Made by a program: the position numbers and the translations under genes. The notes below the pieces were generated by a model. It saw only the letters and a program-made list of their open reading frames with translations. It was not told where the DNA came from and searched no databases. DNA of 64,000 bases. Source: Escherichia coli. GTDB taxonomy: Bacteria > Pseudomonadota > Gammaproteobacteria > Enterobacterales > Enterobacteriaceae. The DNA is taken from assembly GCF_016903815.1 (NCBI RefSeq), contig NZ_CP069973.1; one strand, given 5' to 3'. Below are positions 44,130-45,387 of the stretch, piece by piece (position 1 is the stretch's first letter; every line of letters begins with the position of its first letter).

Positions 44130-45387
44130 TTATTCCGCACAGCCGTAGCGATAGGCGCGCAAAACATCATAAATTTTATCCATAATCAACTGATGCGGTA
44201 TTGCTGATAATTCCCCGGACTGAATGCGTTCAAATTGTTTAGGAAGATACTGACTAATCATGCCCAGAGGGATTTCCATGCCTTCCAGATTCACCATCAT
44301 CGTTTCGACGCTATTTTTAATCCGACTATGCGGCCAGTAATAACGAATACGATCCGACAGGCTGTAACGAATATCCAGTAATGAATCGTTAAAACCCGTA
44401 CGATAATATTTTTTCCAGTATTGCGGTTCGTCAAACATCACTTCTTCAATTACCGCCAGGCAACCGCTGCGATTTTCTGGGGCGATAAGTTCCTGCTCAA
44501 TTTGCGCCAGCGCAAATATCGCCTCACGTAAAGCAAAGGTTAATGCGGGACCGACTTTCAATATTGCAAAGTGATCGCGGACTAATTCCCAATAAGCCGT
44601 CCGGGTCTGGTAATCGGTAGAATGTGCTTCATAAACCATTCGGGTGTTTTCTATCCATTGCGCCAGCGGCTGTGCTTCCTGCGGCTGATAATGGATAATA
44701 TTGCTGTGATCAAATTCCACGCCTGGCTGCACCACAATGGCAATCACGCGTGTTAACGCCTCTGCCAGCCCACGGGCAATAAAGGCCTTTTGATGCGTAC
44801 GTAAAGTATTGGCGGCATCTTCAACCCGGGTAATGTGTACTGACTGAATGGCGCTGGCCTCACCGCCCGGAACCGGAACTTCGGTGCCAATGACATAGCT
44901 CAGTTGCTCACGCTGGCAATCTGTCGCCACACTTTCCGCAGCAAAGCACAGCAGCTCGTTCCGCAACCGTTTCTGGTGCTAACGGTATAGGATCCCCCGC
45001 GCAGGACATTGACGCATCAAGATGAATTTTACTGAAGCCAGCACGAACATATGCCTTTACCAGCTCGACGGATTTTTCCATCGCCGCATCCGCATTTTCT
45101 TGCTGCCAGCAGTTTGGCCCCAGATGGTCGCCGCCGAGAATAATACGCTCACGAGCAAATCCGACTTTATCGGCAATCGTAAAAACAAATTCGCGAAAGT
45201 CTGCCGGTGTCATTCCGGTATAACCGCCAAATTGATTGACCTGGTTTGACGTTGCTTCAATCAGCACTTTGCGCGTGCTGTTGCGATCAAATGCCAGCGC
45301 CGCTTCGATAACCAACGGATGGGCAGAACAGACTGAACATATGCCGATATGTTCACCAGCTTTATGCCGGGCAATTAACGTTTTCAT
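44130..45387 (-). pseudogene. gatZ: gatZ (tagatose-bisphosphate aldolase non-catalytic subunit) split by a frameshift
   Basis: Two adjacent ORFs in different frames (44908..45387 N-terminal; 44130..44966 C-terminal) together cover a GatZ-length protein; frames switch near 44960. Confidence 0.7.

Follow-up and report, generated by a model that had tools for sequence, protein, structure and literature searches.

When Escherichia coli K-12 adapts to the mouse gut, it starts by losing the ability to use galactitol, as reported in two experimental evolution studies (PMC3945185; PMC5094792). The same studies put the fitness gain of Gat-negative mutants in the mouse gut at ~7-8% and describe the ancestor as inhibited by galactitol. 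They also give a loss-of-function rate at the gat locus of ~1e-5 per generation, far over that of a control locus (PMC5094792). The experimental gatZ mutants are Gat-negative, although most are polar IS insertions (PMC3945185). A third study reports a Gat-positive/Gat-negative polymorphism in mouse and human faecal isolates and demonstrates the reversion of gatC frameshifts under selection (PMC5850726). Among E. coli generally, dulcitol is fermented by about 60% (PMC10132054). GatZ belongs to the GatZ/KbaZ (AgaZ) family (NF011626 / TIGR02810; PDB 2FIQ), and GatY and KbaY show much lower activity without their Z subunits, according to earlier work cited in PMC10101011.

The locus described here shares its operon and gene with the K-12 mouse-gut mutants (Barroso-Batista 2014, Lourenco 2016, Sousa 2017), some of which carry 5-bp deletions on the same short tract. 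Those mutants arose in a laboratory strain with a disrupted gatR and a constitutive operon, were mostly IS insertions and were in no case followed in natural lineages. Unlike them, the lesion studied here is fixed in a natural clinical clone whose gatR is intact. Matching gatZ pseudogenes are also present in RefSeq: that of strain 7/2 is identical to ours, and that of O104:H4 2011C-3493 (O3K_RS09000) is likewise 1258 nt long and lacks one unit in the same way. The RefSeq label goes no further than 'frameshifted': the repeat is not pointed out, and the one-copy and three-copy forms are left unlinked across lineages. The lesion is, in itself, an ordinary and already annotated pseudogene, due to a familiar type of mutation in an operon with a record of repeated loss.

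The galactitol operon gatYZABCD, with gatR, occupies 40.0-46.3 kb on the minus strand of the window, the 64,000-nt stretch of E. coli DNA that we analysed. Its neighbours are fbaB and yegT at one end and yegS at the other. The order gatY-gatZ-gatABCD-gatR is that of MG1655, and gatZ lies between gatY and gatA as in K-12, which is the context expected of GatZ. Unlike a functional GatZ, the window copy is a pseudogene with a broken frame. The features are as follows.

40027-40800, minus strand: gatR, full-length 257-aa DeoR-family protein
40906-41946, minus strand: gatD, full length, profile positions 1-344 of 347, above cut-off
41994-43349, minus strand: gatC, full length, profile positions 1-407 of 407, above cut-off
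43353-43637, minus strand: gatB, full length, profile positions 1-94 of 94, above cut-off
43668-44120, minus strand: gatA, full length, profile positions 1-150 of 150, above cut-off
44130..45387, minus strand: gatZ pseudogene, non-catalytic subunit of the tagatose-1,6-bisphosphate aldolase GatYZ, 1258 nt against 1263
44130..44966, minus strand: gatZ C-terminal frame, native codons about 152-420; the ORF opens at an internal TTG
44908..45387, minus strand: gatZ N-terminal fragment, 150 native codons plus 9 out-of-frame codons, then a premature TGA at 44908-44910
44940..44948, minus strand: contracted gatZ repeat tract TGCTTTGCT, 1.8 copies, gene positions 440-448, from alignment
45416..46270, minus strand: gatY, catalytic class II tagatose-bisphosphate aldolase subunit, intact, NF006626 positions 1-284 of 284

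An earlier note on this DNA had described the operon outside gatZ as intact, and this was borne out: gatY and gatA-D span their profiles nearly end to end with scores above the cut-offs, and gatR is full length. The RefSeq annotation of strain 7/2 carries zero pseudogene flags on gatY, gatA-D and gatR, and the window GatY (WP_001308759.1) is also found in strains 7/2 and TST3. The best NCBIfam matches of gatR, AgaR and SrlR, both fell under their curated cut-offs, so its identity is taken from its position and the RefSeq annotation. Beside the operon, the mechanical ORF of fbaB (46500-47624) has 374 codons against the annotated 350 (1053 nt); the extra codons reflect an upstream in-frame ATG only and are no true difference.

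On the minus strand, gatZ appears in the ORF list as two open reading frames of 159 and 278 aa, in different frames, which share the stretch 44908-44966. This is the split, at exactly the same coordinates, from which the earlier note had started, and the short repetitive stretch that it quoted at the overlap, gctgtgctttgctgcgg, is present there. The note had proposed alignment to a reference gatZ as the way to define the indel. Compared with MG1655, the window gatZ shows one 5-nt gap and no other indel, and the same 5-nt gap appears against the 86-24 and EFF60/TST3 alleles. Where MG1655 reads CTG TGCTT TGCTT TGCTGCGG, the window reads CTG TGCTT TGCTGCGG. The ancestral tract, TGCTTTGCTTTGCT, holds 2.8 copies of the unit, and the window has lost one TGCTT. 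In MG1655 the tract reads agcaaagcaaagca on the plus strand and covers gene positions 440-453 (7870-7883 of the MG1655 locus, L002). The wild-type tract, two TGCTT units followed by TGCT, makes up gatZ codons about 147-151 and encodes Leu-Cys-Phe-Ala.

Putting one TGCTT back in silico yielded an uninterrupted 420-aa GatZ that matches PDB 2FIQ across residues 1-420 (E = 3e-281). This clean full-length match indicates that the 5-nt loss is the sole defect in gatZ. As they stand, the two fragments match NF011626 (421 positions) at 1-150 and 144-420 (E = 2.8e-97 and 4.6e-171) and jointly cover the whole profile. Their scores of 326.1 and 569.2 bits both lie under the curated cut-off of 579 bits, and the window holds no single uninterrupted ORF of ~420 codons that scores above it. 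With an indel of 5 nt, no multiple of 3, relative to intact orthologues, gatZ is a frameshift pseudogene. Tandem Repeats Finder did not detect the tract in gatZ because 1.8 copies of a 5-mer fall under its score threshold; we therefore defined the repeat by alignment. Since the break can be read straight from the sequence, the question of chance does not arise. We conclude that gatZ is broken by the loss of one TGCTT unit and that the lesion is real.

The earlier note had left room for a sequencing or assembly error, in which case the genome would truly have two TGCTT units and an intact gatZ. Indels in short repeats can in principle be miscalled, and the window is a single sequence. The same allele, however, recurs across many genomes. 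The 91-nt gatZ junction is found exactly in 94 records. Many complete RefSeq genomes match the 1321-nt gatZ region at 100% identity, and >40 genomes do so over a 24-kb stretch of the window. Strain 7/2 equals the window across the 24 kb compared, and its 1258-nt gatZ (CRT46_RS12150) is flagged 'frameshifted' by PGAP. The same unit has also been lost in other lineages, including O104:H4 2011C-3493 and 55989. A typical platform error is a 1-bp homopolymer error, not the clean loss of a 5-bp unit. With about 94 independently sequenced and assembled complete genomes sharing the allele and other lineages sharing the deletion, an artefact is effectively excluded, and we regard it as very improbable.

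Publications on the matching strains point to the identity of the clone. YDC107 is ST964, O102:H6, phylogroup D (PMC6035167), and WCHEC4533, WCHEC96200 and Z1002 belong to a set close to an ST405 isolate, most of which are ST405 (PMC9037040). On this typing, the window clone probably belongs to the ST405 complex, phylogroup D, an assignment based on strain names in these two papers rather than on MLST. ST410 was also considered for the matching strains and was dropped, as the papers point to the ST405 complex and phylogroup D. Four genomes of the clone (NZ_CP173463.1, NZ_CP173567.1, NZ_CP173480.1 and NZ_CP173602.1) carry a secondary IS1B inside gatZ on top of the 5-bp deletion. These later insertions are secondary decay of the gatZ pseudogene.

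We found that changes in the number of TGCTT units are widespread. The one-copy tract occurs in about 185 database records (94 + 91; 79 + 106 with the other flanking variant) and the three-copy tract in at least 85 exact records. Both figures tally database records, which clonal sampling inflates, and should not be taken for numbers of independent events. Carriers of one copy include the O104:H4 outbreak group (2011C-3493), 55989, O157:H7 F7386 together with three cattle isolates, O55:H7 DEC5B, MS 115-1 and FDAARGOS_1277; every one-copy gatZ record that we retrieved is annotated 'frameshifted' in RefSeq. Carriers of three copies include K-12 RV308, ST540 and STEC 2014C-3011. Counted as genome records of this allele class, roughly 270 out of about 4,000 are frameshifted at this 14-nt tract.

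We compared 12 gatZ alleles with indel columns removed. Each of the six one-copy alleles fell on a branch of its own, as did each of the three with three copies, giving at least nine independent tract events in this small allele sample. Relative to the 2.8 copies of MG1655, EC-129, RV308 and ST540 have gained a unit and the window has lost one. The window allele is the most divergent of the 12, with 28-36 SNPs from each other allele. Elsewhere, copy number differs between otherwise identical genes: O157:H7 F7386 (one copy) and 86-24 (two copies) differ by 0 SNPs in gatZ, as do K-12 RV308 (three copies) and MG1655 (two copies). FDAARGOS_1277 stands alone with one copy in a group of at least 35 two-copy alleles that otherwise match it, and of the O55:H7 genomes listed, DEC5B alone has one copy. 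Units both gained and lost on unrelated alleles are the signature of slippage. The proposal in the earlier note of a small indel by slipped-strand mispairing thus held: the change is exactly one 5-bp unit, a whole-unit indel in a tandem repeat, and it recurs in both directions on unrelated backgrounds. The gatZ tract is a recurrent slippage hotspot across E. coli.

Two of the three-copy genomes show further damage. In EC-129, the three-copy gatZ is also truncated by IS1A (positions 1119-2856 of its locus, L004), and gatA, gatB and part of gatC are lost; in ST540, gatA is partial too.

The same unit loss has been met in the laboratory. Two supplementary haplotype tables of mouse-gut-evolved K-12 in PMC3945185 include 5-bp deletions in gatZ, placed at 2173899 and 2173900 of NC_000913.2. 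We mapped the repeat tract to 2173891-2173904 in the same coordinates, using an offset of 1978 derived from the entry 'coding 755/1263 at 2173589' in PMC3945185 and the MG1655 locus, and verified the mapping by sequence. Both deletions lie inside the mapped tract and hence are the same unit loss as that in the window gatZ. Two more gatZ 5-bp deletions in that source, at 2173878 and 2173887, lie outside the tract, so not all of its 5-bp events are certain to be TGCTT losses. The passages searched in PMC3945185, PMC5094792 and PMC5850726 do not attribute the hotspot to the repeat. We found no further report of the 5-bp gatZ event in papers on DGF-298, vanillin tolerance, rare-sugar PTS and long-term gut evolution. 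A gatZ deletion reported from isobutanol evolution is 1 bp long and a different lesion. A paper on the O104:H4 outbreak population mentions a synonymous gatC SNP only and not the gatZ frameshift, and our search for the dulcitol/galactitol phenotype of ST405 or O104:H4 returned nothing specific. That the lesion is fixed in a lineage, recurs across the species and has already been met in experimental evolution was not seen in the earlier note.

A broken frame need not silence a gene, and we considered whether gatZ could still function, either through a +1 ribosomal shift at CUU_U or through separately made halves that assemble. At the junction the sequence now reads GUG CUU UGC and includes a CUU_U motif, and a +1 shift there would restore the C-terminal frame and produce a GatZ that lacks only Cys-Phe. 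The gene also carries no secondary lesions in the window. CUU_U is the motif for +1 shifting in prfB. At the gatZ site, however, CUU is followed by UGC (Cys), which is neither an in-frame stop nor a rare codon, and inspection of the sequence found no Shine-Dalgarno-like element upstream. We therefore rejected a programmed +1 frameshift of the prfB type: the motif is present but the stimulators are lacking. Separately made halves fare no better, as sequence inspection found no evident ribosome-binding site at the internal TTG (44966) that opens the C-terminal ORF. The IS1 insertions inside gatZ in four clone genomes are expected of a dead gene, and the three-copy variants and a gatY nonsense mutation in the relative EFF60 likewise point to loss of function. 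Together, these observations make a functional gatZ very unlikely.

We therefore return to a broken gatZ and propose the following course of events. A nascent strand misaligned on the TGCTT repeat, removing one unit. The frame shifts after codon 150 and a stop follows 9 codons later, so that full-length GatZ would not be made. Tagatose-1,6-bisphosphate aldolase activity would be low, and galactitol (dulcitol) would be fermented poorly or not at all. The mutation became fixed in the ancestor of the clonal group (probably the ST405 complex, phylogroup D) and is inherited by its members. The step from gene to phenotype draws on the need of GatY for GatZ for full activity and stability: with GatZ gone, the aldolase is likely to be weak or unstable, and the clone is likely to be dulcitol-negative or weak. 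The reduced galactitol use foreseen in the earlier note is thus in line with published work. The premature stop also lies ~780 nt upstream of gatA, and expression of gatABCD may drop as well through a polar effect. Two considerations temper the prediction. The paralogous KbaZ, encoded outside the window, could partly replace GatZ. GatY alone also keeps some activity, which counts against a complete loss of galactitol use. Overall, we consider it highly probable that gatZ underwent a slippage contraction that became fixed in the clone and that predicts a Gat-negative phenotype.

The ancestral, unbroken gatZ allele survives in relatives of the window clone. Using the repaired gatZ as query, we found 100% identity in EFF60, TST3 and TBE6, and ~55 further two-copy genomes at >=99.6%, all ranking higher than the one-copy clone. 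Over 19.3 kb, EFF60 and the window are separated by just 8 SNPs and the 5-nt gap; EFF60 lacks the prophage that the window carries beside the operon. Its gatZ is two-copy and intact, but its gatY (positions 11151-12005 of its locus, L015) carries a nonsense mutation, E249*, by a GAA to TAA change at nt 745. The aldolase has thus been knocked out a second time, independently, in a shared chromosomal background. In TST3, every gat ORF is intact, and an IS200C transposase gene lies between fbaB and gatY (positions 4467-4925 of its locus, L016), ~226 bp upstream of gatY, where it may influence the gat operon promoter.

These relatives bear on how the lesion spread. The frameshift may be neutral at a mutable site and may have hitchhiked on the expansion of a multidrug-resistant clone, with no selection against galactitol use. 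The 94 records stem from one clone, and about 40% of E. coli are dulcitol-negative (PMC10132054), which fits a dispensable pathway. In addition, gatR is intact here, so that the operon should be silent without galactitol, which would remove the cost behind gat loss in K-12. The advantage of Gat-negative cells was shown in K-12 with a disrupted gatR and, for the same reason, may not hold in this clone. Against neutrality, EFF60, the nearest relative with two copies, lost gatY in an event of its own, and TST3 has IS200C upstream of gatY; recurrent damage to a single step within one background is a hint of selection. Gat-negative mutants are also strongly favoured in the mouse gut (PMC3945185; PMC5094792). 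Taken together, there are hints that selection rather than drift helped the gatZ lesion to spread, and we give spread by hitchhiking somewhat less than an even chance. Neutrality concerns the spread of the lesion and not its nature, and is compatible with a slippage contraction fixed in the clone.

The tract might further act as a low-rate, reversible galactitol switch, with one or three copies being OFF when galactitol use is costly in the gut and two copies being ON. Slippage back to two copies is possible because TGCT-T-TGCT is still a 1.8-copy repeat, and the reversion of gatC frameshifts under selection (PMC5850726) likewise leaves room for reversibility at a low rate. If such a switch operated, fluctuating selection acting through it would help to maintain the long-known ~60/40 split of E. 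coli in dulcitol use. Contingency loci are known to vary in phase through slipped-strand mispairing, for example in Haemophilus and Neisseria, which have many repeat units and high switching rates. The gatZ tract resembles them in being an in-frame repeat within a coding sequence whose copy number varies by entire units, which turns the gene OFF, with gain and loss both seen. It differs in having only 2.8 copies and in that the repeat looks incidental. In 2017.11.01CC, for example, the corresponding stretch (L005, gatZ positions about 440-455) reads TGCTTTGCCACGCGG and encodes Leu-Cys-His-Ala. The repeat is interrupted in such alleles, which argues that in gatZ it is incidental coding sequence; the interrupted tract of 2017.11.01CC should be resistant to slippage. 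Among the ~94 clone members, we identified no two-copy revertant. A phase-variable contingency locus is not supported, given that the tract has 2.8 units when ON but 1.8 in the window, and that the roughly 94 members of the clone are all OFF; we hold a slower reversible switch to be doubtful. A slippage contraction remains our reading of the window allele.

This contraction connects adaptation in the laboratory with variation in nature. In mouse-gut evolution the mutation turns up within days, and successful natural clones have it fixed, including the window clone (probably ST405 complex) and the O104:H4/55989 group, and changes in the tract recur sporadically within O157:H7, O55:H7 and K-12. 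The tract offers a molecular reason for part of the unusually high loss-of-function rate at gat. Practical uses follow for typing and annotation. The combination of a dulcitol-negative phenotype and the one-copy allele suggests itself as a marker of the clone, the contracted tract being also a mark of the O104:H4 clone, and pipelines that score gatZ as 'present' in these genomes overestimate their capacity for galactitol utilization.

The prophage beside the operon, which EFF60 lacks, is P2-like, about 33 kb long (window 5016-38116) and inserted between yegQ and yegR. It carries ogrK, tail, capsid and terminase genes, cox and an integrase gene, and an 86-bp sequence is present at both of its ends (window 4930-5015 and 38117-38202). 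Comparison of the window with strain 7/2 revealed a ~312 bp difference somewhere in the first 19 kb of the prophage region. Non-structural cargo at window 28597-32118 is annotated as an ATP-binding protein, an O-methyltransferase and a DNA cytosine methyltransferase, three genes that may form a restriction-modification or defence module. Next to this cargo, a replication endonuclease gene (32395-34500) is annotated as partial.
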